This document shows positions 4,654 through 61,574 of a stretch of 64,000 nucleotides of DNA, in pieces; position 1 is the stretch's first letter; each line of letters begins with the position of its first letter. The notes under the pieces were generated by a model. It saw only the letters and a list, made by a program, of their open reading frames with translations, had not been told where the DNA came from and did not search any database. A program made the translations under genes and the position numbers. Source of the DNA: Puniceicoccales bacterium (GTDB lineage Bacteria; Verrucomicrobiota; Verrucomicrobiia; Opitutales; LL51); assembly GCA_031283585.1 (NCBI GenBank), contig JAITBP010000003.1:70845-134844 (forward strand). Direction: 5' to 3'.

Positions 4654-4725
4654 TATTATAATTTTCTTGACTTGAGAGTAAAAAAGGTATTCGTGCGAGT
4701 TTGTTATTGCAACTGGAAATAAAGC

Positions 4726-9278: not shown

Positions 9279-9296
9279 TTGATGCGTTGTGTTGGT

Positions 9297-10679: not shown

Positions 10680-10695
10680 AGCTAGGTGTTCTAGA

Positions 10696-22609: not shown

Positions 22610-23287
22610 TTAATCAATTGCCATCGCTCTTAATGTGGGGATCGGAACTCCGCCACCAAGTGCCTCGGCTATGTTATTTGTGGGTGTTCCGGTGCCACTG
22701 TTTACCAACTTACCGTCCGATGGACCGGTGCCGAGATCACTAAACCACTCCACATGGCCATCTAGAAACCCAATGTATCCTCCTTTGTTTCCATAGATAC
22801 CGGTTGTATCCCATTTGCCATCGGCTCCAAGACCCCTGGTCCAGGCTATCGGTGTGATTGATGGATCAGCGTGGGCCGGAACTCCGGCAGCAACGCAAAT
22901 ACTTGTGATGGCATTCGTGAAATTGGAATCGGCAACACTGCCATCGGGCTTACAGATTATCTTCGAAGTGATTTTGGTGGCCATGGTATCATCCGGGAAT
23001 AGGTACATTCTGACATCATTCAGTAATCCGGCCTTGGCCAATATCACGGCCCATTCACCAACGGTATCCACTTCCTCGGGGTTAATGGTCGTACCTTCAC
23101 CATTCATGCTTGAAAATTGTAAATAGGCTTTAGCTATCTGGGCCACAGCATTGGCACCTTTCGTTCTTCTGCCCTGTTCCATGACCCTACTTGTTGCTGG
23201 CACAAGCATGGAGACCAATATGCCTATGACAGCCATGGCCACAAGTAACTCAACCAAAGTGAATCCACTTCTATGTTCCACACCCAC
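22610..23287 (-). CDS. Prepilin-type N-terminal cleavage/methylation domain protein (PVC-type pilin-like protein)
   Basis: The N-terminus is GFTLVELLVAMAVIGILVSMLVP. The C-terminal GFLDGHVEWF resembles the DGHV motif of the prepilin-associated domain that is abundant in Verrucomicrobia, Planctomycetes and Lentisphaerae. Confidence 0.75.
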   Translation of the reverse strand: MGVEHRSGFTLVELLVAMAVIGILVSMLVPATSRVMEQGRRTKGANAVAQIAKAYLQFSSMNGEGTTINPEEVDTVGEWAVILAKAGLLNDVRMYLFPDDTMATKITSKIICKPDGSVADSNFTNAITSICVAAGVPAHADPSITPIAWTRGLGADGKWDTTGIYGNKGGYIGFLDGHVEWFSDLGTGPSDGKLVNSGTGTPTNNIAEALGGGVPIPTLRAMAID

Positions 23288-27064: not shown

Positions 27065-29941
27065 ATGTATCTATCTAGGGCTATCTTGTACAATATACTT
27101 ATCTGTGCGGGTTCTTTGTTATTTAGCGTAACCGCTCTGGGTGCTTCAACTACATCCTTTGCAAAACGGTATGATGAAATACGTGAATTTATTGATTCAG
27201 ATAAATGTAAACCTGAATACGAACAATCGCTGAAGTCTTTGGTTGGTAAAGAGTTTACTCTTACACAGGATTGTTTTGAAAAATTGGAAGACGATACCGT
27301 AACTCCTTTGGTCATCGATCTATTTGAAGGAAAGAACCTGGCTGTTGCCATAAAGAAAGTTATTGAGTTTTATCTGAATCCAGAAAATACCACGGATAAT
27401 GAAGGAAAGAATACTCCGTTCATTTTTGGACACTTTGGAATTGTAGATGACATCAGGAATAATGATGAGCTAAAAAATAAATTATCTTCTATTTTGGAAG
27501 AATTAAATAAGACGCATGAAATTGTAGATGGCTACGAAAATTATTTTGAAAAATTAATTACAATCAGACCTTTTTTGTTGGATGCTCATGATTTAATAGT
27601 CAAAGATGCTAACATTAAGGCCGACGGTGGTCTGGCGAAGTTTATTAAAGGTGCCATAAGGATTATCAACACAGTAGAAGCAAGTGGGATGGCAGCAGAA
27701 ATTTTGAAGACACTCAGAAGTGATGCAGAATCAGAGCTGCTTAGTGCAGGTGTTTCCAATGATGTTTCGGTAGATATTTCTAGTAATGGTGTTGTAAGCC
27801 TAAGCGCCGGAATAAGCTATTCGGTGAAAAAAGGAGTAGGAGCTAACTCTTTGTATGAAATATCTAGTAAAATTGGTGCTTCTGCTGGAGTCAAAATAAA
27901 AGTTCCTGGTGATATTTTTTCTCTTTCTGGAACCATTAGTGCAGAGGTTGCCTACACATCTCTTTTCTTCTCCATTGAGCAACTGCTAGATTCAGGTGAA
28001 TTACTGGCAGGAGATCAGCCAGGACATATTTCTAAAGCCCTTTTTAATGAGCTTTCTGGGAGTAGGCAAAGATTACAGGATAAAGAACGGGAATTGTTAG
28101 CTTGTTTTGGTACTGATGTCGAAAATTTCCTAAAGATGCTTATGGTTATACCTTTTGACGTGAATATACGTTGGCCACGAATTACCCGGGCCGAAGGAGC
28201 CATGTCGAGCGTTTCTAAAACATTGGAAGCTGCAATATCTGCAGAGATAACCAGTTTAATTGAGTTAGGATTTGAATTTACTTCAAGCTGTACAAGTACG
28301 ATTTACAAAAAATCGCATCCTTTTTTATCCCTGCTCAATGATGATTGTTTTCCAGCAAATAATCTAAATATAAAAGATATTAAGAAAATCATAGGCTCAA
28401 AATATGATCTTTCTGGCAATTTTATTAAGGACAAGCTTATTAAGGACAAGATTCCAGTCCTATATCAAAGTTATATATTTTTAGGAGACCTTCGTGATTA
28501 TGTTTCTACTCTGGCAGATTTGGCAGAATTGGCACAGGATATAAAAGTGCTTGTGGAAGCCAAAGATGATTATGGAAAAAAGAGTAAAATTTCAAAAATA
28601 GGATTTAGCTACGTGGTTGATAAAGAAAATGGGTCGGATACAGATAAAAAATTAAAAGCTAAAAAAGCCTTAGTAAAGGAATTGACAAAGAGAAAACATA
28701 AATATGAATCTAGCCTTTCTCCTAAGAATCTAATTGGCTCCGAAGGACGTTTAGGGGTTTTGAAAGCCTGTATTATCACCGCGGCGATTCTAAGAAGTGC
28801 AGCAAAAACAGAAGAGGAAATTTCTTTGTTTAGGAAGATGTTCATGGAGATTGAGAAACTATCGCTACTTTTGGAGTTGTCGAAGGATAAAAATTCTAGA
28901 AAAGGAAGTTTTTCTCATAGCGCAAACCAGAAACTTCGTGACATTGGATATGCCGGATCTATGACGGTCACTATTCCAGGAATTATTGAAAACGTTACCG
29001 TAAGTTGTGATTATCATAATGTTTCGAATAGCGTGTTTTTAGACGAGGACGGGACATCCATTTCGTTAACTATAAAAATACCATCATACTTTGTCGATAA
29101 AGATATTACTAATAAATTGATAAACCTTTGTAAAGAAAAATCCAAAAACTCTAAAATTGAATCGATCAAAAAAATATTTAGATGCATGAAAAACTCGATT
29201 AGTTGGTTTGCGTCAAAATATGATAATTTAACGGCTTCCGAGCTTATTCCTTTTGTCAACATAAAAAGCCTTATTTATCGGGGTGAAATAGAAATAAGTA
29301 CATCTATTGCAAAAATACCAGGTAACTCTTCGCCAGAATCATCAAAACCAAAACCTATACCTGGCAGAAAAAAGTTTATTAAAACCAAATCCAAATGGAA
29401 GCGGGTTTATTCTCAGTACAGTGTGGTTCTTCCATCGACCTATACAATACCAGGCAAAGAGGAGATAGAAAACAGCCTGAAAAAGATCGTACCAATAGAG
29501 GTAACCTTAACTAAAGAGCTTACCCAAAATACTCAACAACTTGGAACTGAGACTCTTAATTACATTGTTTCCAGGTTCAACGTGTGGCAAATGGGTCTTA
29601 GCGGAGAAGAGGATAACGTTAGTGTAACCTGGAATTCCTTTAAGAGTAGCAATAAACAAGAACTGTCAGGAATTATAAAAAATATAGGCAGTAGCAAACC
29701 AGGCATTCTTTATGAGCTGCAATGTATTTATAACGACAACCTAGGAAACGTTAATAAGATGACCAAAAAAGACAATAAGATTTTCGAGAACTTGCTTAAG
29801 TGTTGTAGTACTTTTGTACAAAACGAAACAGATGCCAACCTTAATGCAGCTCTAGACGCTTTAGATGAGGTACTAAAATTCAACTACAAAAACAATTTTC
29901 TTGTGCACTATAACAAGGCATTTTCTCTGAAAAAATCTTAA
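27065..29941 (+). CDS. Large secreted orphan protein (958 aa), function unknown
   Basis: The ORF is uninterrupted. It has a Sec-type signal peptide (LLFSVTALGA|STT), is K/S/N-rich, and carries an alternating-polarity beta-like segment at aa 228-303. I recognise no family motif, and the gene is more AT-rich than its neighbours. Confidence 0.6.
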   Translation: MYLSRAILYNILICAGSLLFSVTALGASTTSFAKRYDEIREFIDSDKCKPEYEQSLKSLVGKEFTLTQDCFEKLEDDTVTPLVIDLFEGKNLAVAIKKVIEFYLNPENTTDNEGKNTPFIFGHFGIVDDIRNNDELKNKLSSILEELNKTHEIVDGYENYFEKLITIRPFLLDAHDLIVKDANIKADGGLAKFIKGAIRIINTVEASGMAAEILKTLRSDAESELLSAGVSNDVSVDISSNGVVSLSAGISYSVKKGVGANSLYEISSKIGASAGVKIKVPGDIFSLSGTISAEVAYTSLFFSIEQLLDSGELLAGDQPGHISKALFNELSGSRQRLQDKERELLACFGTDVENFLKMLMVIPFDVNIRWPRITRAEGAMSSVSKTLEAAISAEITSLIELGFEFTSSCTSTIYKKSHPFLSLLNDDCFPANNLNIKDIKKIIGSKYDLSGNFIKDKLIKDKIPVLYQSYIFLGDLRDYVSTLADLAELAQDIKVLVEAKDDYGKKSKISKIGFSYVVDKENGSDTDKKLKAKKALVKELTKRKHKYESSLSPKNLIGSEGRLGVLKACIITAAILRSAAKTEEEISLFRKMFMEIEKLSLLLELSKDKNSRKGSFSHSANQKLRDIGYAGSMTVTIPGIIENVTVSCDYHNVSNSVFLDEDGTSISLTIKIPSYFVDKDITNKLINLCKEKSKNSKIESIKKIFRCMKNSISWFASKYDNLTASELIPFVNIKSLIYRGEIEISTSIAKIPGNSSPESSKPKPIPGRKKFIKTKSKWKRVYSQYSVVLPSTYTIPGKEEIENSLKKIVPIEVTLTKELTQNTQQLGTETLNYIVSRFNVWQMGLSGEEDNVSVTWNSFKSSNKQELSGIIKNIGSSKPGILYELQCIYNDNLGNVNKMTKKDNKIFENLLKCCSTFVQNETDANLNAALDALDEVLKFNYKNNFLVHYNKAFSLKKS

Positions 29942-40752: not shown

Positions 40753-41715
40753 TTATATAAAGGTTTTATTGTAATAACGAGCACGCAGACCAGCAATCCA
40801 TTTATTATAAAGCTCTTCACTGAGTTTTTTGGAAATTTTTTTCTCTATATCATCGGATGCTTCCTGGAGAGTCAGTTGATGGGCTTCAGATATCCATTTG
40901 TTGACAATTATCATAATGTAATGTCCTTTGATTTTTATTGGCTTCGATGCCATGCCCTCCTGTAATAAGCCGACCTCTTGACGTAGTTCGTCGATGACAT
41001 CGGCTAGGGAAATTTTCCCAAGTGGAGTTACTGATATGTCGCAGCTATTGTGATATTTTTTTACTATTTCATTTAGATTTTCATTTTTTGAGAATTTTTT
41101 GTAAATATCATCTATGGTGGCATCGATATCCTGACAACCATTATGAGGGAAAATCGCTACCTGAGATATGTCTATTTCCGCATCTTTATAAAAATCATTA
41201 TAATGTGCATCGTAGAATTCTTTTATCTGTAGTGGGCTTACTTCAAAGTGTTGACCAATCCTTTGCTTAAGCATAAAGCTCGATATGGCATTTTTTTGTA
41301 TATCATCTTTGAATGCTTTGGCTGATTGACCGGTCATATGAAGATATTCGGAGAATATCACCCGGTTACCTCCAAAATCTTCGTTGAGGATTTGTATAAA
41401 TCTCTTATCCTTAAAGTGTTCTGGTGCTTTGCCCTTCATCCTTTCGAATTCTTTATTCATCAATTCCATGTCTATATTATGCTGAAGTATTTTTCGACCG
41501 AGTTTGTCCAGCATATCTGGATTGTTATTGTATCTACCGTTGGTTTCCTCCGACAGTTGTACTCCAATTTGATGGGATGTGATTGCCCTATCATTGGCTA
41601 CGGCTGCTATCTGATTCATGTATAGTATAGTTGGGTCCTGAGGCGTTGTTGTAGCCGAAGCAAGTACGAAACAGCCCATAAATATTGAGGCAAGTGAACA
41701 GAAAAATGATTTCAT
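40753..41715 (-). CDS. SurA/PrsA-like periplasmic chaperone with a degenerate parvulin-like segment
   Basis: It has a signal peptide and a SurA-N-like region (IAAVANDRAITSHQI). A C-terminal ...GMASKPIKIKGHYIMIIV resembles the parvulin S.P....GYHII motif. Confidence 0.5.
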   Translation of the reverse strand: MKSFFCSLASIFMGCFVLASATTTPQDPTILYMNQIAAVANDRAITSHQIGVQLSEETNGRYNNNPDMLDKLGRKILQHNIDMELMNKEFERMKGKAPEHFKDKRFIQILNEDFGGNRVIFSEYLHMTGQSAKAFKDDIQKNAISSFMLKQRIGQHFEVSPLQIKEFYDAHYNDFYKDAEIDISQVAIFPHNGCQDIDATIDDIYKKFSKNENLNEIVKKYHNSCDISVTPLGKISLADVIDELRQEVGLLQEGMASKPIKIKGHYIMIIVNKWISEAHQLTLQEASDDIEKKISKKLSEELYNKWIAGLRARYYNKTFI

Positions 41716-41813: not shown

Positions 41814-43208
41814 TTAGCCGAGAATTTCCACAAATTTTTTCGGTATGTTACCAAAATTTCCATTGGATAGGAAAGCCACAACGGTAGCTTCGGTAAATTT
41901 CATTTCTGTCAGGGCCGACAAAATTTCTTCATTGTTCAGTGCCCTGGCACTTATACCAGTTTTGTTTAAATCTTCGGAGAGCCTGGCGGTATCAAGAGTG
42001 GTTTCTCTGGATTTAAATACATTTGCTATGAACACATGGTCGGATTCATCGAATGCACCGATGAACTCGTTCTGAAATACGTTGGAGCAAGCGGTGTTAC
42101 TTCTTGGTTCAAAACAAGTTATAATCCTATGGCCGGGGTATTTTTGTCTGAGACTTTCCAGGGTTACTTTTATGGCAGTTGGATGGTGTGCGAAGTCGTC
42201 AATTACGGTTAATTTTTCGTTAGAGACCAACACTTCTTGGCGTTTTTTTATGCCTTTGAAATCCGGTAGCCATCTGATGTCAGTTCCAAGGGGGTCACCG
42301 GAAATGGCCAAGCCCGATGCGATGATTGACATCATGGTATTGCGAGCATTGTACTTACCAAATAAACTCGATGCTATCTGCATTTTTCTGCCAGATTTTT
42401 TTTCAACAATTTCGAAGGTGGTAAACGAGTCGTTGACCACAAAATTCCTCAGCAGGTAGTCATTATCGTCATTTTCACCAACAAATATGGATTTCGTCCA
42501 GTTTACTGGAAGAATGGACCTGATATTTGGGTCATCACCATTGGCGACGATGCAACCATTTGATGGAACAACTCGTACAAGATAGCTGAAGGATTTTTTG
42601 ATATCCTGGATGTCGCGAAAAATATCACCGTGGTCGAACTCTATATTTCCAATCACAAGTATATCCGGCGCATAGTGTATAAACTTGCTTCTTTTGTCAA
42701 AAAATGCCGAATCATACTCATCACCTTCTATTATAAATGGACCATTTTCATCACCAATATGGCTTCCGGATGAGAAATCCAATGGCACTCCACCTATCAT
42801 ATATCCTGGATTTAGACCATTTTTTTCCAGTATGAATGAGGTCAAGGTTGTTGTGGTTGTCTTTCCATGGGTACCAGTTATGACGATGCTTAGTCGTTTT
42901 TTTATTATTTCCCTATGAATAAATTCAGGTAAGGAACAATAGGGTATTTTTTTTGTAGACAGTAACCATTCCACTTCCTCATTTCCTCTGGGTATGGCAT
43001 TCCCTACAATGACCACATCGGGGTTCAGGTACTCAATTCTAGCGGCAGAGAAGGAATCATATATTTCGAGATTATTTGCTTCTAACAGTCCGGCCATTGG
43101 CTGATATGGCTTTGAATCAGAACCACATACGCCATGACCAAGTTTACTTAACATAATCGCCACATTTCCCATGGCCGTCCCACAGATTCCTATAAAATAA
43201 ATTTTCAT
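41814..43208 (-). CDS. mpl: UDP-N-acetylmuramate:L-alanyl-gamma-D-glutamyl-meso-DAP ligase (murein peptide ligase)
   Basis: The N-terminus MKIYFIGICGTAMGNVAIMLSKLGHGVCGSDSKPYQPM parallels E. coli Mpl (MRIHILGICGTFMGGLA...GSDANVYPPM). The Mur ligase P-loop ITGTHGKTTTT is present. Confidence 0.85.
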   Translation of the reverse strand: MKIYFIGICGTAMGNVAIMLSKLGHGVCGSDSKPYQPMAGLLEANNLEIYDSFSAARIEYLNPDVVIVGNAIPRGNEEVEWLLSTKKIPYCSLPEFIHREIIKKRLSIVITGTHGKTTTTTLTSFILEKNGLNPGYMIGGVPLDFSSGSHIGDENGPFIIEGDEYDSAFFDKRSKFIHYAPDILVIGNIEFDHGDIFRDIQDIKKSFSYLVRVVPSNGCIVANGDDPNIRSILPVNWTKSIFVGENDDNDYLLRNFVVNDSFTTFEIVEKKSGRKMQIASSLFGKYNARNTMMSIIASGLAISGDPLGTDIRWLPDFKGIKKRQEVLVSNEKLTVIDDFAHHPTAIKVTLESLRQKYPGHRIITCFEPRSNTACSNVFQNEFIGAFDESDHVFIANVFKSRETTLDTARLSEDLNKTGISARALNNEEILSALTEMKFTEATVVAFLSNGNFGNIPKKFVEILG

Positions 43209-44245
43209 GTACGTATACCGAGTATTATTGAGCTCAATCCACTACCTATGCCAAGCAATGCATAATTTGAGTCATTTTTTATCAATCCGGTTGATCTGGC
43301 TATGGCTAATGTGATCGGTAGTGCTACTGAACCAGTATTACCTAGGTAGGTATAGGTGGAAAAATCCTTATGAATATCTAATCCCAGTGTTTCATAAAGC
43401 CTTACCATATGTCTTCTACTTACTTGATGACATAGAGATTTGTCAATTATTTTATCATTCCAGCCGGATGATTTACAGAATTTTTCCCAGTTCGATGATG
43501 CCAATGATATGCCGGCGTTCAGTAATTTTTCGGATTCGGTTTGCATGGTTAGTGAATTATTCGCAACATCACCTTCACATAGGTTGCAGGCACTGGAATC
43601 TGACAGGACATTTGCGTATTTTACCCTTGGGCTGGAAGTGGAAAGTGAACTGTGGCATAGCAGTGCAGCAACGGCTCCGGAGCCCAACGTCAGGTTCGCA
43701 AAATATGGTTTGATTTCATTTCTATCAAAACGAGATGAATTAAGTATGGATATGGTGTTATCTAGCACTGGCTTACCATCTTCTCCAGAAACTATCAGCG
43801 CGCAGCCTATCCGGCCGGATTCTATCATTCCTCCGGCGATGAGTATGGCGTTTAAAAACCCTAAACAGGCATTTGATAGATCGAAAAATTGCGCAGACTT
43901 GCTGAGGCCCAGTATGTTGTGTACATAGGCAGCCGTCGATGGTTCAATCCGATCTCTACACACCGAAGAATGTATCAGCAGCTCTATGTCATTCTTCTTG
44001 AACTGTGATGTGCCGGAAGAGAATAATTTGTCTGCCGCTTCTGCGCTGGCTTCGGATGGTTTTTTATAATCTTTCCAGAAGCGCCGTTCCTTTATTCCTG
44101 TCATCAACTCCAGCCGCCCTTTTGGCAATCTCAATCGCTCATAGGTGCTATGTAACAGGCCTTCTATTGAATCTGAAGATACACACTCCGGTGGTAAAAC
44201 ATAGTCCATGGCCTCGATCGAAACATTTTCGAAGGAAAAAAACAT
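43205..44245 (-). CDS. KAS III (FabH)-like 3-oxoacyl-ACP synthase family paralog
   Basis: The thiolase-fold Cys-His-Asn triad context is retained (SNACLGFLNA, CHQVSRRH, LGNTGSVALP). It is distinct from the canonical fabH at 60588-61574 and overlaps the mpl start by 4 nt. Confidence 0.75.
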   Translation of the reverse strand: MFFSFENVSIEAMDYVLPPECVSSDSIEGLLHSTYERLRLPKGRLELMTGIKERRFWKDYKKPSEASAEAADKLFSSGTSQFKKNDIELLIHSSVCRDRIEPSTAAYVHNILGLSKSAQFFDLSNACLGFLNAILIAGGMIESGRIGCALIVSGEDGKPVLDNTISILNSSRFDRNEIKPYFANLTLGSGAVAALLCHSSLSTSSPRVKYANVLSDSSACNLCEGDVANNSLTMQTESEKLLNAGISLASSNWEKFCKSSGWNDKIIDKSLCHQVSRRHMVRLYETLGLDIHKDFSTYTYLGNTGSVALPITLAIARSTGLIKNDSNYALLGIGSGLSSIILGIRT

Positions 44246-44293: not shown

Positions 44294-44689
44294 CTAATCA
44301 AGGCATATATACTTAGCGTCTATGATCCTGTTGTTGTCTTTTTTCCGTATTTTACCACCTATTACCACTTTTTTATCAATGAACTTTGATATATCGCTCT
44401 GGAGTACCGCTTTGGAAGTTTCCACATAGGCAACCCTAGTACCATTGGAACCAACAAGTTCGTATTTAGCTTCGGGACTAAATAGTCCAAAAAACCCAAA
44501 CAGAAATTTTTTTGGTTTTTTTAGTGTGCCAGCATATTGATAATCCTTCCATAGCTCTATTTGTTCATGATCTGCAGTGGCATAGCCAAATGTATCGGTG
44601 GTTTTTGCTATGGAATCCATCGGCATACCTAGAGATATCAAAGATACAAGCAATACAACTTTCAACATGAAACAGATCTTTATTAACAT
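44294..44689 (-). CDS. Small secreted hypothetical protein
   Basis: It is 131 aa with an N-terminal signal-like segment (VVLLVSLISLGMP). No motif is recognised. It lies 27 nt downstream of the HtrA-like gene. Confidence 0.4.
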   Translation of the reverse strand: MLIKICFMLKVVLLVSLISLGMPMDSIAKTTDTFGYATADHEQIELWKDYQYAGTLKKPKKFLFGFFGLFSPEAKYELVGSNGTRVAYVETSKAVLQSDISKFIDKKVVIGGKIRKKDNNRIIDAKYICLD

Positions 44690-44716
44690 GTGAGATTTTC
44701 AAGAATTTTTTTCTTG

Positions 44717-45820
44717 TTAATTAAAATGGCTTTGGTCATCTAATTTAACTGGCAGTTGTAGCATATTTCCTTTGCGAATTATGTCTATGTTAACAATATC
44801 TCCTGGTCTCAGCAGGAATAATGAATTAGCTATATCTCCAATATTAACAATTTTATTACCATTTATTGCAGAAATTACATCATCGATCAATATGCCTGCC
44901 TTTTCTGCAGGTGAATCCTGTTGAATCCTGGAGACAAGAATTTGGACACCATTTTCCTGGGTATATTGCTGATGGACAAAAAACCCTGCAGTACAATGGG
45001 TTACGCCACCTGTCTTAATTATGTCGCTGCATACCCGATCCAATGTCCAGGCCGGCATGAGAAAACTTGAACGCATGTCAGGCAGGGAAGCTATCATTAT
45101 TCCGGCCAATGTGCCATCTATAGAAAATACCGGTGAGCCGGTTTCTCCACCATCTATCGGTAGGTTGGTTCTGGTCAATTTAACCGGGAAAGATGTACTT
45201 CCATAGCTGGAGTTTTCGCCAACGATTATGCCAAAATTTGGCGATGGATCCAGTCCAAGTTTACATTCCACCGAGACTAAAAATTCACCACAGCATACAT
45301 TGCCTTTGGGTTTTCCATCGGTGATGTCTATTATATCAAAATGATCAGGTTTTTTTAAAAGTCTCACTATGGCTATGTTTGTTATGCGATCAGACCCGAC
45401 GAGTTCAGCGGCATATGACAACCCATTGAATTCTACCCATATGTTCGTTGCATCATCGACGATGATTGCGCTGGTAACAACCCGGGCCATGTCATCGATA
45501 AAAAAACCAGACCCAAACAAAATTTTGTTACTGAGTTCTGGATTTTTGCCAGCCGGACTTTTGGTTGAATCTGGTTGTTTGTCATCCTTGGTCTCGGACT
45601 TCGCGCTCGATGTTTCGTTGTTACTAATGCGAATTCCTATGATTCGCACGACCGCGTCCTTTTTTTTATAGAAAACATCGCTAACAAAAGAAAACGGCAT
45701 CGGGTTGATTGGATTGCCAATGGCTGTTCCACAGCTCTTGGCCGTTGAATCAGATGTATCGCCATTACAATTAGATAGGCAAATAACAATCGATATGACT
45801 ATACAAAACACATAACGCAT
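44717..45820 (-). CDS. HtrA/DegS-like trypsin-fold + PDZ protein with all three catalytic residues substituted (predicted pseudoprotease)
   Basis: I aligned it to E. coli DegS from memory. GSGFFIDDMARVVTSAIIV aligns with GSGVIMDQRGYIITNKHVI (His->Ile119). LVGSDRITNIAIVRL aligns with LVGSDSLTDLAVLKI (Asp->Asn148). IDGGETGSPV aligns with INHGNSGGAL (Ser->Thr227). The PDZ segment VSRIQQDSPAEKAGILIDDVISAINGNKI is intact. Confidence 0.7.
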   Translation of the reverse strand: MRYVFCIVISIVICLSNCNGDTSDSTAKSCGTAIGNPINPMPFSFVSDVFYKKKDAVVRIIGIRISNNETSSAKSETKDDKQPDSTKSPAGKNPELSNKILFGSGFFIDDMARVVTSAIIVDDATNIWVEFNGLSYAAELVGSDRITNIAIVRLLKKPDHFDIIDITDGKPKGNVCCGEFLVSVECKLGLDPSPNFGIIVGENSSYGSTSFPVKLTRTNLPIDGGETGSPVFSIDGTLAGIMIASLPDMRSSFLMPAWTLDRVCSDIIKTGGVTHCTAGFFVHQQYTQENGVQILVSRIQQDSPAEKAGILIDDVISAINGNKIVNIGDIANSLFLLRPGDIVNIDIIRKGNMLQLPVKLDDQSHFN

Positions 45821-45850
45821 AACAACATTCGTAACAAATCTATAGATAGG

Positions 45851-46321
45851 TTAAAACGAGTTATTACGTTTTGTCCAATAGGAAGAATCCATATCCATAG
45901 AATTGCTGACATAACATATTGCATTTTGACTGTTAGACGTATATGATATCGTATCATGGCAACCACTGATGCATGACAGTTCATTTCTAACAAAGTCCTT
46001 TGCACCTAGCACCGAAGTGCTATTAAAGCTAGGTCTATTATCGTGATTTTGAAAATTGAATGCCACCAGTATGACTAGCAAACACATTATGTAGGAAATA
46101 AAAGGAACCATCCGTTTGCTAACTATGAAAAATAAACACACATTATCGATGCAGGTACTGCCATCAGGTGTTGGTTCTAACAATTTGCTATGTAACCGAT
46201 TATCAAAATCTGCCCAAAAATCTTTAGATGGCCTTTCAGCCTTCTTGATTTGTAGCAAAATCGACACCTTTTCATCGAGTTTTTTACGATGTCTATCATC
46301 GGACGAAAAAAACAATCTCAT
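45851..46321 (-). CDS. Putative single-pass anti-sigma factor
   Basis: Its start overlaps the ECF sigma stop by 4 nt. It has one central TM (VPFISYIMCLLVILVAF) between short cytoplasmic and periplasmic segments. The call rests on position and topology only, as there is no zinc-binding anti-sigma motif. Confidence 0.45.
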   Translation of the reverse strand: MRLFFSSDDRHRKKLDEKVSILLQIKKAERPSKDFWADFDNRLHSKLLEPTPDGSTCIDNVCLFFIVSKRMVPFISYIMCLLVILVAFNFQNHDNRPSFNSTSVLGAKDFVRNELSCISGCHDTISYTSNSQNAICYVSNSMDMDSSYWTKRNNSF

Positions 46322-46950
46322 TTGATAAAATCCTCTAAATATGCTTGTAACTCTATCTTTGCATAATGCAACCTTGATCTAACGGTCCCAGGAGAACAAC
46401 CCATTATTTCAGCTATCTCGCTATGGGATAGCCCTTCGATTTCAAATAACACAACCACTAGTCTATGATTATCGGATAGTTTTTGGAGAGATTTATTCAG
46501 TATTTTTTGTAGTTCTAAAAGATATTCATTTCTCTCTCCTTGGTTTTCCACTGTAATTTTTTCAATTACTTCTGGTGGAAGGGTAGACTCATCAAGTTGC
46601 TCTAGAGCTAAAAATCTATTTGACCTATGTTTCCTGAGATAGGACATGGCCTGGTTTATAGCAATCTTGTATAACCAGGTAAAAAATGCAGAATCGCCTT
46701 TAAATTTATGCATGGAACGAAATGCCTTTATAAAAATATCCTGCATTAAATCTAAAACATCGGCAGTGTTGGACACAAGATTATATACCACCGAATATAT
46801 CCTTTCTCGGTATTTTTTGACCAGCACTTCAAAGGCTGCCACATCACCACTTTTAGCCAAGGCAACGATCTCCTTTTCGTTTTCACTCGGACCCACAGCC
46901 TCGCTAATTCCATTCAGTGAATTATGACTTACTGTTTCAATACTATCCAC
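46318..46950 (-). CDS. ECF-type RNA polymerase sigma factor (sigma-70 family group 4)
   Basis: Region 2 is DLMQDIFIKAFRSMHKFKGDSAFFTWLYKIAINQAMSYLR. Region 4 is the HTH LSHSEIAEIMGCSPGTVRSRLHYAK. It uses a GTG start. Confidence 0.9.
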   Translation of the reverse strand: MDSIETVSHNSLNGISEAVGPSENEKEIVALAKSGDVAAFEVLVKKYRERIYSVVYNLVSNTADVLDLMQDIFIKAFRSMHKFKGDSAFFTWLYKIAINQAMSYLRKHRSNRFLALEQLDESTLPPEVIEKITVENQGERNEYLLELQKILNKSLQKLSDNHRLVVVLFEIEGLSHSEIAEIMGCSPGTVRSRLHYAKIELQAYLEDFIK

Positions 46951-47068
46951 ACAACTAATTCGTTAATAACTATCTTAAAATATTATCAAATAGCAATATA
47001 AAAATTATTTTTTGTGCCAAAATCTAATCATCGAGATTATCATAAATTTATAAAAATTCATGATTTTT

Positions 47069-47095
47069 TTGACTTGTTATCCAAGATGTTATATG
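47069..47095 (+). promoter_or_regulatory. Candidate extended -10 promoter upstream of mutL
   Basis: TTGACT lies at 47069-47074, followed by a 15-nt spacer ending in TGT, then TATATG at 47090-47095. The match is by eye only. Confidence 0.3.
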
Positions 47096-47164
47096 AAATA
47101 TGGCGGTGGCCGATTGGTCGACGTAATTGTAAGATGATTGATGATTGGAAGCTGTGTTTTTAAT

Positions 47165-55037: not shown

Positions 55038-55112
55038 AAAATTTCATTCAATTTGGTATTTCCAATTGATAGTTTTGCTGGATTTAATATCCTAGGCTAT
55101 TAATTTTTGCCT

Positions 55113-58100
55113 ATGGATCTAATTAACTCCCTTGGAATAAATGGAAATGAGAAATCACAAATTCTTAAAGATAAATCTCTTTTGGAATATGTAAATCTTA
55201 TGCTCCTGGCGATAGGGCAACCATGTTTTGGTAGTAAAGAAGATTGCTCAATAACGAAGATGGCTGCGCCATTATTGTCGATGGTCAATGAATTGCGCCT
55301 ACGACAACATGGCAACTATTGTCCTGCTGATCAACGAATTATAGCATTTTTAGATGAGTTTTTAAAGGACTTGCCGGTGGAAGAAAAACATGATTGGCTT
55401 CCCTGTTCAACATTTACCGTCGATCGCCATGGTATTTCAAGGGTTCTCTCGCTGCCACCGGATGCCGATGAGTTTCACTCAGAGTATATCTCTTCCTATC
55501 GGGTCCATCAGGGCATATTGCATAATCCCAGGATAGATAGGCGCACCACCAAGGGCGTGTTCCATATAGTGGAAGGAGGCCTAGAAGTCCCTGCGGATAA
55601 ATTAGCTGTACCGAAATTAGCCTTCTGTCGAATGCTAAAACACGCCTGTAATCCACCGAAGCAGTTACTGGAATTGCCATTCACAGCCACACAGCCTAAA
55701 AAAGCTTATACCTTTGTATCTGGCTATCTCAGGCCAATAGTATGCCCGAAGGTTCCTGGTTATTGCAATGAGATGTGGATGGAAGTAAGATTTTTTACAC
55801 CCGGTTCCCTGGTCAATTTTCTTGATATGGTCGAGAGCATTTTTGGCAGCGCTGGTTGCCCATTTCTGGCTGAAAATGATGCAGCTTTCATGCCAGATTC
55901 CTGGACGGGCCATACCGGTTGCATAATCGTTGCTCCTCATCTTACCCAGTTGACAAAAAAGGAACTTGGGCTGCCACATGTTTCGGAAGCCACTGATAGA
56001 CAAAAACGTGACGGTATGTGTTGGGAAAAAGCAGACGAATTATATCATGACGGGCAACCGTTCAAAATAATGGCGAGAACCAATGATGGTGTGGTGATTT
56101 CGATCATCGCTGATAGCTATAACGGCTATGGTAAAAAGGAAATAAAAACCCATATAAGCTATTCGGCAAATCTTATGGGGCTCTGTGAGGAAGAACATTC
56201 AGGTGGCGCAATTGCTTTTGCAAGGTACGATCTGGGTGATGACTTCTCGATGGATTATATAGAGCATTGTAATCAAACCATGCAGCGTTTTTTGAAAGAA
56301 TATGGCAATTTAGTCATATTAAAGGATGATGGTTATGCCGTCGACAGGAAGTTCAAGGATATAATATATGTACCAGAGGATGCCCATTTCTCGATGATGG
56401 ATCAAAAAATTTCTTGGTCGCTCAACGGCCACAAAAAGGCTATAAATCTTGTGCCAGGTTGTACTTATATATTACCCTGTGGCTATCAGATCGAATTGCT
56501 TAGACCAAAAGGTGGTGATGGTTGGCGAATGATCGGTACCCGGGGCGATGGCGTGTTTTGCCATAAACCGTCAACGGTGTCAGGCGGTGGTAAGTCAGAG
56601 ATTTCTAAATCTATTTCTGACAACATATTACTTGGGAGTGTTGTCAGCGTAGAATTTGATAAAGACTGCGATGCGGTCGATGATATCATAAGACATGACT
56701 ACAGCAACAGATATAAAATCAATAAAAAGGCGGATTTGCCTATTTTAGATAGAAGGCGTTCCCTGGGCTCGGTCATAAAGATGTTTACCCAGAATGAAGA
56801 GCATTCCAATGAACATAATTCTTGGCTGAGAACTATCCCTCCACATATAAAGGATCTGTTATATGTGTTGAAAGCACACTATCGTGATAGTTGGGGAACC
56901 GATTGGCGAAAGTATTTTTCGGTGGATTTTATAAATGGTACCAATGGCAATGAACTAAAGTATCTGAATAATAAATTGGTTGCCCACTACCTTAGGATTG
57001 GACTGATTGGTGATAAATACTGGAGGACGTTTACATTACGTCACGATTTTTACCCAGCCAAAAAAATACAGATGGAAGACGATATAACGGCCACAACGGT
57101 GGTTTCAACCAGTAAATTGGCTGGATTGAATAAGCCGTTCAAGTCGGTAAAATTTGTTGAAAACTGTGAATTCAGGTTATATCAAAGGCCAGACGATGCG
57201 ATTATACCAGGCTATGATAATGGTGCTGAATTGGATATGACATTGCCAGATACCTTTTTATGTAATTACCATCCGCTTACCAAATCTGAGGTGGCAGAGA
57301 TGGCCAAGGATAACATCGGGTTTTCCAAATACACCGAGCCGATGCAAAAGTTTCTGTTGAGTTTTTTGAATAGCGATGAGTCACCAAAGTATGTGGTATG
57401 TCCATCCAGATTAAGAAAGATGCCAGATGGTAAATTCAGTACAAATCCAAGATATCTTCAGACCAGGGAGGATATTCTAGATCCTAGAGCCATTCATATA
57501 ATGACCATGGGTGCACGGTTAGTCAACCAACTTACCAGTAATCAAAATGTGTATCATGCGGTGGATGTGGTCGTTGCCGGACGCAGGAATAATCCTCCAG
57601 AGAAAGGAATAAAACCTCTATGTGTTCACAGCCCATTGCACTACTTGGAGCTGCCAGAATTGTTCATGGAGTTTGCCTCAAATATGACCGGAAAGTCACC
57701 GTCAACTACCGGTGCTGGCTTGGAAGGAGTTATGACCAAGGGGCCGTTCAATTGTTTGAGCACAATAATAGATCTCAACAATACTTTGGTTAGTTTCCTT
57801 GTCACCGGCTATGCTGGTTTCATATCTTCAGCAGGTTGTATTGGTCCGAACTTTAGGATTGGCCACGATATATCCTATCTGATTCCTGAGATAGTGTGTC
57901 GAATGACAGCCATGGAGAGGGATCCGGCCTATCTTATAGAAAATGGATTTCTGGAAAGATGCAGCGACATGGTACATAGAGGTAAGACCATTGCTAGCAG
58001 TAGGCTAGGCTATCGCATAACAAAAAAATTTGTGTCGGCATTTTTAGGCAGGATATTATCGAGTCCGGATACGGTGATTTCCGACGAAATGCTAAAGCCA

Positions 58101-58553
58101 GAACTACAGGATATGAATGTTTTTGCCGATAGCATGGAAAATATAGTCAATGCTCATCAGCGGGCTGCAAGTATATTTTTTGAGGATGGATCTATAGCAA
58201 AGGCCTGCCCGCCGCTAAAAGCTCTGCTCCATATAATGGCCAGGGGAGACTACGAAGGAATGACATTGTCCTCACCGGAATTCAGGGCCATGTTTTCAAA
58301 TGAAAATATCCTAAACAGCGACTGGTATATCGAACGGCTTCGTGCTAGCAAAGAAGTAACTTTAAATCGCTATAAAAAATGCCTAAATTATATGAAGTCG
58401 TTTTGTGATGCTTACAATAACAGTTCGATTATAGGCTCTCTTGGCCTGGATGCGACGATAAAAAAAACAACCTCAACCGTTAATGCATTGTCCAGGGACA
58501 CGAAAGCCAGCCTGGCATTAGGTACAATAGGCGCCGATCCAGCGGTGCTTTAA
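55113..58553 (+). CDS. Very large conserved-looking cytosolic enzyme; tentatively PPi-type phosphoenolpyruvate carboxykinase-like
   Basis: The uninterrupted ORF is 1146 aa from ATG 55113 (1148 from TTG 55107) with no signal or TM. Its size matches the roughly 130-kDa PPi-PEPCK class, and it carries a P-loop-like VSGGGKSEISK. That it is a real CDS is near certain; the functional call is weak and made from memory of the family only. Confidence 0.4.
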   Translation: MDLINSLGINGNEKSQILKDKSLLEYVNLMLLAIGQPCFGSKEDCSITKMAAPLLSMVNELRLRQHGNYCPADQRIIAFLDEFLKDLPVEEKHDWLPCSTFTVDRHGISRVLSLPPDADEFHSEYISSYRVHQGILHNPRIDRRTTKGVFHIVEGGLEVPADKLAVPKLAFCRMLKHACNPPKQLLELPFTATQPKKAYTFVSGYLRPIVCPKVPGYCNEMWMEVRFFTPGSLVNFLDMVESIFGSAGCPFLAENDAAFMPDSWTGHTGCIIVAPHLTQLTKKELGLPHVSEATDRQKRDGMCWEKADELYHDGQPFKIMARTNDGVVISIIADSYNGYGKKEIKTHISYSANLMGLCEEEHSGGAIAFARYDLGDDFSMDYIEHCNQTMQRFLKEYGNLVILKDDGYAVDRKFKDIIYVPEDAHFSMMDQKISWSLNGHKKAINLVPGCTYILPCGYQIELLRPKGGDGWRMIGTRGDGVFCHKPSTVSGGGKSEISKSISDNILLGSVVSVEFDKDCDAVDDIIRHDYSNRYKINKKADLPILDRRRSLGSVIKMFTQNEEHSNEHNSWLRTIPPHIKDLLYVLKAHYRDSWGTDWRKYFSVDFINGTNGNELKYLNNKLVAHYLRIGLIGDKYWRTFTLRHDFYPAKKIQMEDDITATTVVSTSKLAGLNKPFKSVKFVENCEFRLYQRPDDAIIPGYDNGAELDMTLPDTFLCNYHPLTKSEVAEMAKDNIGFSKYTEPMQKFLLSFLNSDESPKYVVCPSRLRKMPDGKFSTNPRYLQTREDILDPRAIHIMTMGARLVNQLTSNQNVYHAVDVVVAGRRNNPPEKGIKPLCVHSPLHYLELPELFMEFASNMTGKSPSTTGAGLEGVMTKGPFNCLSTIIDLNNTLVSFLVTGYAGFISSAGCIGPNFRIGHDISYLIPEIVCRMTAMERDPAYLIENGFLERCSDMVHRGKTIASSRLGYRITKKFVSAFLGRILSSPDTVISDEMLKPELQDMNVFADSMENIVNAHQRAASIFFEDGSIAKACPPLKALLHIMARGDYEGMTLSSPEFRAMFSNENILNSDWYIERLRASKEVTLNRYKKCLNYMKSFCDAYNNSSIIGSLGLDATIKKTTSTVNALSRDTKASLALGTIGADPAVL

Positions 58554-58592: not shown

Positions 58593-59177
58593 CTATAGGG
58601 TTCTATCGATCGAGATCATTATAGAATCTGGGATAACCCATTTATCCTGACCATCTTCTTTTATTTGTTTTGGGGCTGTCTTACTTTCCCATTGACCATC
58701 ATTGGTAATGTATAGGTACCTTAGCCCATTGCAGTTGTTTAGTATTTCCACTTCGGTGGGGGTATCAGAATCGGTGCTATTGGAGGTCTTATAATGAATG
58801 GATAATTTTTTATCATTTAGTACTAGCCAATACTCTACATGTTTAATATCGGTATGATTGGTGTCTGCAACAAACGGTTGATAGTTGCTATAGGCCTTCC
58901 AATGCAGATAGGTGGTGAGGTCGTTGCCAGTTGGCAAAGGTGAAAAATCCATTTCATATACAGATTCGAAGAGTGCTTTGAGTATTTCTTCGGTGATGAT
59001 TCTGTTTGCCGAATATTCTTTTTCTCTGTACAAATCCTGCTTTTTTTCTCGGCTCCACATGGTCATGAATGTTATTACTGTGGACGCACAGCCGGTAAGA
59101 ACTATAGCGCCTATGCTCAGTGCTAATAACATTTCCATTAAGGTGAATCCGCGAGATCTCCTCATAATTTTCGCCAT
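58593..59177 (-). CDS. Prepilin-type N-terminal cleavage/methylation domain protein (minor pseudopilin-like)
   Basis: The N-terminus is RGFTLMEMLLALSIGAIVL. The gene is AT-rich and stands alone. Confidence 0.65.
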   Translation of the reverse strand: MAKIMRRSRGFTLMEMLLALSIGAIVLTGCASTVITFMTMWSREKKQDLYREKEYSANRIITEEILKALFESVYEMDFSPLPTGNDLTTYLHWKAYSNYQPFVADTNHTDIKHVEYWLVLNDKKLSIHYKTSNSTDSDTPTEVEILNNCNGLRYLYITNDGQWESKTAPKQIKEDGQDKWVIPDSIMISIDRTL

Positions 59178-59500: not shown

Positions 59501-60538
59501 ATGTATAATCAACAAAGGTCTGTTGCCATTGATGTAATGGGATCTGATGCCGGGCCTGAAGAAATTCTTCAGGGTATTTTAATGGCTGTGGACAGCTATG
59601 CTGAGTTAGCCAACATCGTATTGGTTGGTGATAGTGAAATTATTACCAAATACATGGCCAAGTACAGGTGCGCCAGATCTGAAAAAATTTCTGTGGTTCA
59701 TGCCTCGGAGGTAATAGCCATGGACGAAAAACCATTGATTGCGCTTAAAACCAAGAAAGATTCATCTATGTTAAAAGCCATAGAGCTTGTAAAAAATGGC
59801 TCTGCTTCGGCCATGTTGAGCTGTGGCAACACTGGTAGTTTAATGGCAGGAAGTACGCTGAAGATAAGAATGAAGGATGGCGTTGATCGACCGGCCTTGG
59901 CATCGATTATACCTTCAATGGATGGCCGTTTTATACTAGTAGATGTGGGTGCTAACCCAAATTCCAGTGTTATCAATATGGCGCACAATGCCGTGCTTGC
60001 GTCAGTGTATTGTAAGTCTACGTTGAAAATTGAAAAGCCAAGGGTTTCGCTTTTGACCATAGGCACCGAGGAAGGAAAAGGTAATGATCTGACCCAATTG
60101 GCCCACGAAGTCCTCAAAAAAATGAATGGATTGATTTCCTATATTGGGTTAGTAGAAGGATTTCAACTTTTTGACAACTATGCCGATGTGGTTGTCTGTG
60201 ACGGGTTTGTTGGAAATATATTGCTGAAGGCTTTGGAAAGTGTCGCTTTTACATTGGCCAATGGCCTAAAACATGAGATTAAAAAAAATCCACTTCGAAT
60301 GTTTGGAGCTTTGTTGGCTAGTGGAGCATTTAGGGCTTTAAAGTCCAGGTTAAATCCAGAAAAATATGGTGCAGCTCCGTTGCTTGGTCTGAAAGGAATC
60401 GTCCTAAAAGCCCATGGATCAAGTAATAAGAATGCCATAAAAAATGCGGTTAAGATAGCTTCCGATCTTTCCATCAATGGCATAAACGAAATGGAGCTTG
60501 ATTTGATTGCCAAGACCAACGAGATTATCGGTCTCTAG
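59501..60538 (+). CDS. plsX: Phosphate acyltransferase PlsX
   Basis: It has IAIDVMGSD, CGNTGSLMA and VVCDGFVGNILLK. Confidence 0.9.
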   Translation: MYNQQRSVAIDVMGSDAGPEEILQGILMAVDSYAELANIVLVGDSEIITKYMAKYRCARSEKISVVHASEVIAMDEKPLIALKTKKDSSMLKAIELVKNGSASAMLSCGNTGSLMAGSTLKIRMKDGVDRPALASIIPSMDGRFILVDVGANPNSSVINMAHNAVLASVYCKSTLKIEKPRVSLLTIGTEEGKGNDLTQLAHEVLKKMNGLISYIGLVEGFQLFDNYADVVVCDGFVGNILLKALESVAFTLANGLKHEIKKNPLRMFGALLASGAFRALKSRLNPEKYGAAPLLGLKGIVLKAHGSSNKNAIKNAVKIASDLSINGINEMELDLIAKTNEIIGL

Positions 60539-60587
60539 GTTTTATTGCTTGTAAAAAAAAGATTGGCATCAATTATCGGCCTAGATT

Positions 60588-61574
60588 ATGCCTGAAGCTA
60601 TTTATATAAATGGGATTGGATCCTATCTCCCAGAAAAAATTTTGACTAACTACGACATTGCTAGGGTTGTTGACACTTCAAATCAGTGGATAGTTGAGCG
60701 CACAGGCATAGAATCTAGACACATTGCTGCCGAAGCGGAAATGACATCTCATATGGGCTTCATGGCTGCCAAGGCCGCATTGGTTGATGCGAACCTGACT
60801 CCGGCAGAAATAGATATGATAATACTGGCAACCATGGCTCCTGATATGCTGTGTCCCTCAACCGCTTGTATTGTGCAAAACCTCTTGGGTTGCAGTCAAA
60901 TACCAGTCATGGACATCAGCGCGGCCTGTTCGGGATTCCTGTACATTTTAGATGTGGCCTGTAGTTATTTGCTAAGCCACAAGAATTACAAAAATATTCT
61001 GATTATTGGTAGCGAGAAGCTATCATCGATGGTTGACTGGGAGGATAGGTCAACCTGTATTTTATTTGGGGACGGAGCCGGAGCTGCCGTGATAAGTAAA
61101 GGAGATTATCATGGGGTTATGGATGTGCTTATCGGTGCCGATGGCTCGGGTGCCTATATGTTGACTATACCAGCAGGTGGTTCAGCCAGACCAGCTTCCG
61201 AGATGACTGTCAAAAACAGAGAGCATTTTATAAGAATGGATGGTCAAGAGGTCTTTCGCAATGCCATAAAATATATGGGCGAGGCTATTGATATGGTTTT
61301 GAAGAGGAACAACCTAGCCATCGATGACATAGCCTGTGTGATCCCTCACCAGGCTAATATTAGGATAATAAATATGATCGCCGAACGGTCCAATATTGGC
61401 CAGGATAAGCTGTTTTGTAACATCGATCGTAGAGCAAACACCTCGGCGGCTTCTATACCCATAGCATTGGCCGAAGCTGCAAAGATTGGAAGGATTAGGT
61501 CCGGAGATCTGATTTTGCTTGTGGCGTTTGGCGCTGGAGTGACCTGGGGTGCATCTATTATAAAATGGAAGTAG
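60588..61574 (+). CDS. fabH: 3-oxoacyl-ACP synthase III
   Basis: It has WIVERTGI, the active-site Cys ISAACSGFLY, IPHQANIRI, GNTSAASIP and GFGAGVTWG-like AFGAGVTWGA. Confidence 0.9.
   Translation: MPEAIYINGIGSYLPEKILTNYDIARVVDTSNQWIVERTGIESRHIAAEAEMTSHMGFMAAKAALVDANLTPAEIDMIILATMAPDMLCPSTACIVQNLLGCSQIPVMDISAACSGFLYILDVACSYLLSHKNYKNILIIGSEKLSSMVDWEDRSTCILFGDGAGAAVISKGDYHGVMDVLIGADGSGAYMLTIPAGGSARPASEMTVKNREHFIRMDGQEVFRNAIKYMGEAIDMVLKRNNLAIDDIACVIPHQANIRIINMIAERSNIGQDKLFCNIDRRANTSAASIPIALAEAAKIGRIRSGDLILLVAFGAGVTWGASIIKWK

Follow-up and report, generated by a model that had tools for sequence, protein, structure and literature searches.

The sigmaE/DegS pathway of Escherichia coli is a textbook case of signalling by regulated proteolysis, in which DegS cuts the anti-sigma factor RseA after Val148. 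Genes of the HtrA family stand within the sigma operon in Pseudomonas (algU-mucABCD) and in Mycobacterium tuberculosis (sigE-rseA-htrA, Rv1221-1223), and MucD of Xanthomonas and Stenotrophomonas is an active DegP-like protease with a full catalytic triad and two PDZ domains. In these last two genera an HtrA-family gene directly follows rpoE-rseA (PMC4229105). The PDZ domains of DegS and AlgW read C-terminal aromatic residues, those of outer-membrane proteins (OMPs) or of MucE, RseA is masked, and so protected, by RseB, and RseP has PDZ domains that keep bulky substrates out (PMC10202637). HtrA or trypsin folds that have lost catalysis are also known: MamO of magnetotactic bacteria has been repurposed for metal binding in biomineralization (PMC4794232), and a degenerate protease domain of plant DEG7 for oligomerization (PMC3194040). 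Here we describe a locus within a window of 64,000 nt (positions 70,845 to 134,844 of contig JAITBP010000003.1, from a Puniceicoccales bacterium), in which the genes of a sigma factor of the extracytoplasmic function (ECF) type and of a small single-pass membrane protein are followed by the gene of an HtrA-fold protein lacking the catalytic triad. The locus is best filed as a variant of the sigmaE/AlgU-type envelope-stress module, with a conserved pseudoprotease and a previously undescribed family in the anti-sigma position whose C-terminal Phe is invariant.

Four co-directional genes occupy the minus strand from position 46950 down to 44294, in the order sigma factor, membrane protein, HtrA-like protein and a small protein of 131 aa. 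The junction between the sigma stop codon and the membrane-protein start reads ATCAAATGAGA, a 4-nt ATGA overlap; the coordinates leave 30 nt between the membrane-protein and HtrA-like genes and 27 nt between the latter and the 131-aa gene, and no terminator-like site was found between any of the four. A sequence-only reading of the window had reported these open reading frames (ORFs), their coordinates and their spacing, all of which were borne out by our ORF and sequence check. The features on which the argument depends are the following.

46318..46950, minus strand: ECF (RpoE-like) sigma factor, 210 aa, GTG start, recognized by Pfam and NCBIfam
45851..46321, minus strand: membrane protein of 156 aa with a single pass, in the anti-sigma position, of an undescribed family
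46178..46303, minus strand: its cytoplasmic N-terminal two-helix region, residues 7-48, helices from the AlphaFold2 (AF2) model, with invariant L22, L23 and P31
46052..46108, minus strand: its transmembrane segment, residues 72-90 (hydropathy peak 2.36; AF2 helix 72-90)
45854..46051, minus strand: its periplasmic tail, residues 91-156, predicted disordered, with invariant Tyr137 and Phe156
44717..45820, minus strand: HtrA/DegS-fold pseudoprotease with one PDZ domain, 367 aa, N-terminal signal sequence (Pfam, AF2, Foldseek)
45035..45529, minus strand: its protease-fold (trypsin-like) domain, spanning residues 98-262; the triad positions hold Ile119, Asn148 and Thr227
44741..44992, minus strand: its PDZ domain, residues 277-360 (Pfam PDZ_2, PDZ_6, PDZ)

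The order of ECF sigma factor, single-pass anti-sigma factor (here putative) and periplasmic HtrA-family PDZ protein is shared with rpoE-rseA-mucD of X. campestris and S. maltophilia, an operon of envelope-stress function that lies within its own regulon (PMC4229105). There RseA belongs to the RseA family, whereas here the HtrA-like protein has no triad and one PDZ domain, and the anti-sigma position is held by an unrelated family ending in Phe. The sequence-only reading had judged the operon slot unusual by comparison with E. coli. This was overstated, since an HtrA gene after rpoE-rseA is established in Xanthomonas and Stenotrophomonas, and the ‘RseB slot’ framing is E. coli-centric because the order sigma, anti-sigma, HtrA has precedents elsewhere. 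The novelty lies in the lost catalysis and not in the place within the operon. In M. tuberculosis, too, the sigma and anti-sigma genes are followed by that of a single-PDZ HtrA, but this HtrA is active and RseA is a cytoplasmic anti-sigma factor.

The E. coli sigmaE system resembles the locus in its RpoE-like sigma factor and membrane anti-sigma factor, in having a periplasmic protein that protects the anti-sigma factor, a role only proposed here, and in DegS, a single-PDZ, HtrA-fold periplasmic sensor that reads C-terminal aromatic residues (YxF). However, DegS is active, membrane-anchored and encoded elsewhere, and RseB has an unrelated fold; here a DegS-like fold predicted not to cleave stands at the place of rseB, and the Phe-COOH terminus is carried by the anti-sigma-position protein itself. 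No operon gene matched an RseB/MucB family in Pfam or NCBIfam, so that only position and proposed role are analogous. The Pseudomonas aeruginosa system is similar in that MucD, an HtrA homologue encoded in the algU operon, is a negative regulator and the WVF terminus of MucE is read by a PDZ domain, but there MucD and AlgW are active, MucB is present (no MucB-like gene occurs here) and the motif is on the separate MucE. MamO and DEG7, like the present protein, are natural catalysis-lost HtrA/trypsin folds; unlike it, they have no link to a sigma/anti-sigma pair. A full-text literature search found no description of a module with a pseudoprotease HtrA beside a sigma/anti-sigma pair, and the main text of the ECF re-classification, as distinct from its supplementary group descriptions, contains no ECF group with Trypsin/PDZ neighbours in Verrucomicrobia.

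The loss of the triad was examined by three alignment methods: phmmer to solved DegP, MucD and HtrA chains, MAFFT with the 84 loci described below and hmmalign with 150 representatives. All three place Ile119 (codon ATC, 45464-45466), Asn148 (AAC, 45377-45379) and Thr227 (ACC, 45140-45142) at the positions of the catalytic His, Asp and Ser. In the phmmer alignments to DegP, MucD and Helicobacter pylori HtrA, VTSAIIV is paired with LTNNHVV, DRITNIAIV with DPRSDVAVL and GGETGSP with PGN(S/A)GGP. The motifs GSGFFIDD, ELVGSD and GGETGSP are all retained, and the Pfam profile check found Trypsin_2 at residues 103-241 (E 6e-11) and a single PDZ domain (PDZ_2, residues 291-360, E 4e-12). The sequence-only reading, which had aligned the protein by eye, was thus right that every triad residue is replaced while the surrounding blocks and the PDZ domain are intact. 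It had also allowed for a triad elsewhere in the protein; across the triad-less family the protease domain has no conserved His at any position, and a relocated triad is therefore excluded.

An AF2 model of the protein (mean pLDDT confidence score 84.9), a check that the same reading had proposed, superposes on DegP, DegQ, DegS, MucD and AlgW (Foldseek E ~1e-25), with TM-scores of 0.62-0.72 against DegP, DegQ and DegS, and so predicts that the fold is retained. Among PDB chains MucD-type proteins are its top sequence matches by phmmer. It falls far under every NCBIfam cut-off for HtrA, DegP, DegQ and DegS, scoring 118 against 416 for the Do family TIGR02037 and 72.6 against 423 for DegS TIGR02038. 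To judge from the alignments and the model, the HtrA fold is kept and the catalytic chemistry lost. Because the triad is absent, catalysis by the classical mechanism would be impossible; predicted to be non-catalytic, the protein would not act as a DegS-type site-1 protease cleaving the anti-sigma factor. Its source annotation is ‘S1C family serine protease’.

Two further traits of the protein were observed. The signal sequence (45761-45820) ends ..VICLSNC-NGDTSD, and CNGDTSD is kept in a relative (L003), which makes it possibly a lipoprotein via Cys18, though the residue at -1 is atypical; in relatives at greater distance the signal peptide is an ordinary one (..SLA-EE). Residues 66-96 (45532-45624) form a Ser/Lys/Asp-rich low-complexity insertion with pLDDT <50, predicted to be disordered, which sits between the first strands of the protease domain at the place of the regulatory LA loop of DegP and differs greatly in length among relatives.

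Triad loss is common to a whole family. In four orthologues, at 78%, 67%, 38% and 42% identity, the His position is occupied by Thr, Thr, Ser or Ser, the Asp position by Asn and the Ser position by Thr, Ser or Gly. We then searched 1.84 billion cluster representatives (50% identity clusters) with a profile of five members. Among the best 150 matches, 103 are single-PDZ proteins of <460 aa without a full triad, and canonical H/D/S ‘Do’ proteases are confined to lower ranks, starting at about 175 bits, with most of them under about 140 bits. In the family Ser, Thr, Asn or Ile takes the place of His, and Asn that of Asp in about 76% of members, the commonest change; the Ser position holds Gly, Ser or others. 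Family-specific residues of the protease domain are W128, E130, N148, P192, P194, R217 (98%) and E226; of these R217 and E226 lie in the former active-site region. In the PDZ domain the Gly of the carboxylate-binding loop (G279) is retained in 86% of the family, and helix B carries F335 in 90%, against Ala in canonical HtrAs. The three representatives with a source name are all from Puniceicoccales or Verrucomicrobiota and are called ‘serine protease Do’, ‘S1-C subfamily serine protease’ or ‘PDZ domain-containing protein’. Judged from their sequences, the roughly 100 clusters now labelled ‘serine protease Do’ or ‘S1C family serine protease’ almost certainly do not consist of proteases. A metagenome scan with a 12-sequence family alignment yielded only two weak loci.

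The gene is maintained by purifying selection, since its pairwise ratios of non-synonymous to synonymous substitution rates (dN/dS), 0.08-0.16, match those of neighbouring genes (sigma factor 0.08, mutL 0.10, a fabH-like gene 0.10). The least saturated pair, L002 versus L003, has a dS of 0.71 and a dN/dS of 0.13, and the ORF is intact in >20 loci. A retained fold, a loss of catalytic residues conserved over >20 loci and about 100 clusters, and purifying selection are together the marks of a pseudoenzyme.

The association with the sigma factor extends across the phylum. A locus scan of one genome per GTDB species gave 80 loci, and 84 loci in all were searched for the four window proteins. The contigs of the orthologues show the same order of sigma factor, small membrane protein and pseudo-HtrA. 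Where upstream sequence was available, 18 of 20 triad-less verrucomicrobial genes follow an orthologous ECF sigma factor and a small single-pass membrane protein, compared with none of 61 triad-bearing HtrA loci (Fisher p ~4e-16, uncorrected for phylogeny). Conversely, every HtrA-like gene after the orthologous sigma factor (E 1e-43 to 1e-95; 18 loci) is triad-less. These 18 loci come from Puniceicoccales, Methylacidiphilales, Verrucomicrobiales and unclassified Verrucomicrobiota, and ORF clustering over them leaves sigma factor, membrane protein and pseudo-HtrA as the sole conserved set. Approached from divergent homologues of the membrane protein, the trio of sigma factor, membrane protein and Trypsin_2-plus-PDZ protein was recovered in two of three lineages, where the triad positions read Ser/Gly/Gly and Ser/Asn/Gly. 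The three-gene module is thus conserved across Verrucomicrobiota, and the orthologue survey extends triad loss and sigma synteny far beyond what could have been known from the window itself.

The membrane protein gave no match in Pfam, NCBIfam and PDB profile searches, whether alone or as a 17-member family, and no known anti-sigma domain; its sole weak match is a Leptospira family (E 5e-4, far under the cut-off). We therefore dropped its assignment to a known anti-sigma family. The sequence-only reading had called the pair a sigma/anti-sigma operon; the single-pass topology and the ATGA coupling stand, and the anti-sigma label is one of position and topology. The layout agrees with a functional definition of anti-sigma factors, with ATGA coupling, a helical cytoplasmic N-terminus and a single transmembrane helix, in an arrangement kept in 18 loci. 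The family is present in 17 loci and in 24 database proteins, all of the latter annotated ‘hypothetical’, and consists of a short cytoplasmic N-terminus, one transmembrane helix (~65-91) and a periplasmic tail of 53-80 residues. Its N-terminal motif is LxxLLxxKxxExP...(Y/F)(F/W)D.F, and AF2 predicts N-terminal helices at 7-28 and 33-48 (pLDDT ~87-93), by which, we infer, the protein binds the sigma factor.

Only five columns are invariant over 24 homologues: L22, L23, P31, Tyr137 (codon 45911-45913) and the C-terminal Phe156 (TTT, 45854-45856, then TAA). All 17 members derived from loci and all 24 from databases end in Phe. The tail ends ..(S)YDxx(hydrophobic)AF in most of the phylum, ..CF or ..NSF in Puniceicoccales, and ..FDF, ..FSF, ..GFRF or ..TTF in divergent forms; the invariant Tyr lies 15-24 residues before the C-terminus, mostly within R/H-Y-V. 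In the window protein pLDDT is <50 throughout residues 91-156. As in a PDZ ligand, a free, conserved hydrophobic C-terminal residue lies in a predicted disordered region. The tail looks like such a ligand because of this predicted disorder, the invariance of Tyr137 and the C-terminal Phe, and the ending of every member in Phe.

Because the anti-sigma-position protein always ends in Phe, the case for a non-proteolytic, PDZ-based regulatory role of the pseudo-HtrA, which the sequence-only reading had put forward, is strengthened, and this is our best reading of the sequences. The locus would then be a three-component envelope-signalling module in which an RpoE-like sigma factor of the ECF type is joined by a new kind of single-pass anti-sigma factor and by a non-cleaving single-PDZ HtrA fold that binds the anti-sigma tail. 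We hold this view with evenly balanced confidence. The cytoplasmic two-helix N-terminus of the membrane protein would hold the sigma factor, and its disordered periplasmic tail would present an OMP-like hydrophobic-x-Phe-COOH terminus and, 15-24 residues upstream, a Tyr-Val resembling an HtrA cleavage site. The dead HtrA would bind this tail as an uncleavable substrate-like ligand, with the C-terminal Phe in the PDZ pocket, and the Tyr-Val segment may occupy its former active-site cleft. Thus capped or bulked, the tail would be shielded from a tail-specific or site-2 protease, and the dead HtrA would play an RseB-like, protective part on a DegS-like fold. Under envelope stress, unassembled OMPs with aromatic C-termini would compete for its PDZ domain and cleft; the tail would be freed, the anti-sigma factor degraded and the sigma factor released. 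Sigma binding, PDZ–tail binding, protection and OMP competition are the steps that we infer. By analogy with RseB, which masks RseA, and with RseP, whose PDZ domains keep bulky substrates out, the role of protector or plug is plausible (PMC10202637).

Among the sequences, the classes of PDZ loop and helix B pair with the classes of tail ending (RHGWVGV with xAF, SYVxxGFS with xCF and THCTAGFF with NSF); this co-variation is suggestive, although it spans three clades only and is confounded by phylogeny. Other observations also weigh against tail binding by the pseudo-HtrA. At the place of the Arg in the carboxylate-binding loop of canonical HtrAs the family has Tyr, and the window protein His275, which could make for a different ligand binding, and the tail of the window's own clade (..RNNSF) is without the hydrophobic -2 residue seen in most of the family. 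The membrane protein, as stated, shows no recognizable anti-sigma domain. The tie to the sigma factor is not obligatory, because the triad-less members at L015 and L021 adjoin no sigma factor and the third of the divergent lineages, the Opitutaceae-like P0069, has the C-terminal Phe and no adjacent HtrA gene. Given P0069, the Phe might be read by another PDZ protein (RseP, Prc/Ctp or an active DegS-like protease). Finally, adjacency could merely reflect membership of the sigma regulon, as for active mucD/htrA genes in other phyla.

From these last points comes the main rival, in which the dead HtrA is an effector, a protease-free holdase chaperone that belongs to the operon only through an autoregulated regulon, the Phe being read by a PDZ protease encoded elsewhere. 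We regard this as possible, if somewhat doubtful. DegP S210A has chaperone activity, and the conserved cleft residues and the PDZ domain of the pseudo-HtrA would suit general unfolded-protein binding equally well. The non-absolute linkage (L015, L021, P0069) keeps this alternative alive, the best PDB sequence matches include MucD, and in Xanthomonas and Stenotrophomonas the corresponding place in the operon belongs to an active HtrA gene (PMC4229105). A chaperone role, however, leaves unexplained why only the triad-less clade is tied to the sigma/anti-sigma pair throughout the phylum, and why PDZ loop classes track anti-sigma tail classes; moreover, the pseudo-HtrA is the only PDZ protein encoded in the module.

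Alternatively, the dead HtrA could work alongside an active HtrA paralogue as its adaptor, decoy or subunit, forming mixed trimers or competing with an active DegS-like enzyme for the tail and so tuning site-1 cleavage, the tail itself supplying the activating C-terminal Phe along with a cleavage site at Tyr-Val. HtrAs trimerize via the protease domain, whose fold is retained here according to AF2 and Foldseek. DegP cleaves substrates roughly 10-20 residues upstream of a PDZ-anchored C-terminus, and the distance of the Tyr-Val motif from the end of the tail, 15-24 residues, recalls this spacing as well as the Val-Ser site of RseA. Nevertheless no active HtrA is encoded within the window or at any linked locus and nothing points to hetero-oligomerization, so that this account seems to us improbable. 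A pseudogene in decay, or a triad loss produced by an alignment artefact, has next to no probability: the ‘S1C family serine protease’ annotation and the scores far under the NCBIfam HtrA cut-offs might invite the idea, but the low dN/dS, an ORF intact in all relatives, three concordant alignment methods, the lack of any conserved His in the domain and a loss common to about 100 sequence clusters rule out the pseudogene and relocated-triad readings.

If the pseudo-HtrA does bind the tail, a bolder extension can be put forward, which we offer tentatively and think rather unlikely: in Verrucomicrobiota the main sigma switch for envelope stress may work with no site-1 protease. The dead DegS-like protein would serve as a removable plug holding the OMP-mimicking Phe-COOH tail of a new type of anti-sigma factor as an uncleavable pseudo-substrate, and unassembled OMPs would displace it by competition, exposing a short tail directly to intramembrane (RseP-type) cleavage. 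The parts list is the same as in sigmaE/DegS, with the sensor protease turned into a non-enzyme and kept so phylum-wide. Should the binding model be true, it would show a protease-based switch evolving into one based on binding or competition, and would offer the first way into the study of how Verrucomicrobiota, among which are symbionts of the gut and of the termite gut, sense envelope stress.

The outlying members have features of their own. The P0069-type protein (L085-L087, gene 4001-4810) has 269 aa, a much longer periplasmic region and the ending LVGFRF; its gene overlaps its sigma gene and is followed by an Acyl_transf_3 gene instead of a pseudo-HtrA gene. The members at L015 (5680-7050) and L021 (5728-7059) form a triad-less HtrA-like sub-family with Ala/Gly/Val at the triad positions; that of L015 has a long Pro/Ala/Gly-rich C-terminal extension, and a STAS-like ORF of 121 aa lies upstream of it on the opposite strand.

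The sigma factor itself has only the sigma-2 and sigma-4 regions (Pfam Sigma70_r2, Sigma70_r4_2 and Sigma70_ECF), and its score of 119.8 bits against NCBIfam TIGR02937 (sigma70-ECF; cut-off 42.9) places it among the ECF (group 4) sigma-70 factors. Its best equivalog-type matches, PRK11922 and RpoE (E ~1e-41), both fall under their cut-offs, with scores of 139.8 for TIGR02939 and 142.9 for PRK11922 against 236 and 204. By sequence it is RpoE-like, but not an assigned RpoE equivalog. Upstream of it lies the presumed promoter region of the operon.

46951..47137, no strand: AT-rich intergenic stretch that separates the sigma operon from the divergent mutL, presumed promoter region

The upstream regions of 19 loci were inspected for a shared ECF-type promoter; some contain GAAC-like elements, and no consistent -35/-10 pair was found. 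A replication origin at the GC-skew switch near 47 kb was considered and rejected, because the local switch tracks gene orientation; the skew is positive over most of the window.

The last of the four operon genes encodes the small protein.

44294..44689, minus strand: 131-aa secreted protein with a signal-like N-terminus, a clade-restricted accessory

For this protein Pfam and NCBIfam gave nothing, and the PDB nothing meaningful. The sequence-only reading had called it an orphan, which it is not: L002 carries an orthologue in the same position, with 46% identity and a dN/dS of 0.15, the only one found. The protein is absent from the more distant loci according to the 84-locus search and ORF clustering. 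These comparisons indicate that the gene is real, lies outside the conserved core and is confined to the closest relatives. At its place, in the relatives whose pseudo-HtrA is at 38-42% identity, stand convergent ORFs after the pseudo-HtrA gene (L001 3049-5028, minus strand, 659 aa; L004 971-2047, minus strand, 358 aa), which have no Pfam match and look related to each other.

The flanking genes are of housekeeping or envelope function: a fabH-like paralogue, mpl, secDF, mutL, a 7TM-HD protein gene, lpxI and lolCE-like genes. No RseP, Prc/Ctp or active HtrA gene was found within the window. Downstream of the 131-aa gene lie a diverged FabH/KAS-III-like paralogue (43205-44245, minus strand) with weak ACP_syn_III matches and then mpl (41814-43208, minus strand). 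The gap between the 131-aa gene and the FabH-like paralogue is 48 nt, on the same strand and without a terminator, and the order is the same in L002; for these reasons the transcription unit may reach past the four genes into the FabH-like paralogue and mpl. The canonical plsX-fabH pair is found elsewhere in the window (59501-61574, plus strand).

Several ORFs of the window had no Pfam match at E 1e-5 or 1e-6: 27065-29941 (958 aa), 55107-58553 (1148 aa), 299-1627 (442 aa) and 16913-17854 (313 aa) on the plus strand, and 40753-41715 (320 aa) on the minus strand. A 466-aa ORF (10642-12042, plus strand), located after dnaA (9279-10679) and before lpxA, encodes a fusion of LpxC with a FabA/FabZ-like dehydratase domain. 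Pseudopilin-like proteins are common in Verrucomicrobia, and two ORFs on the minus strand, 22610-23287 (225 aa) and 58593-59177 (194 aa), carry the N_methyl prepilin-type N-terminal methylation motif.

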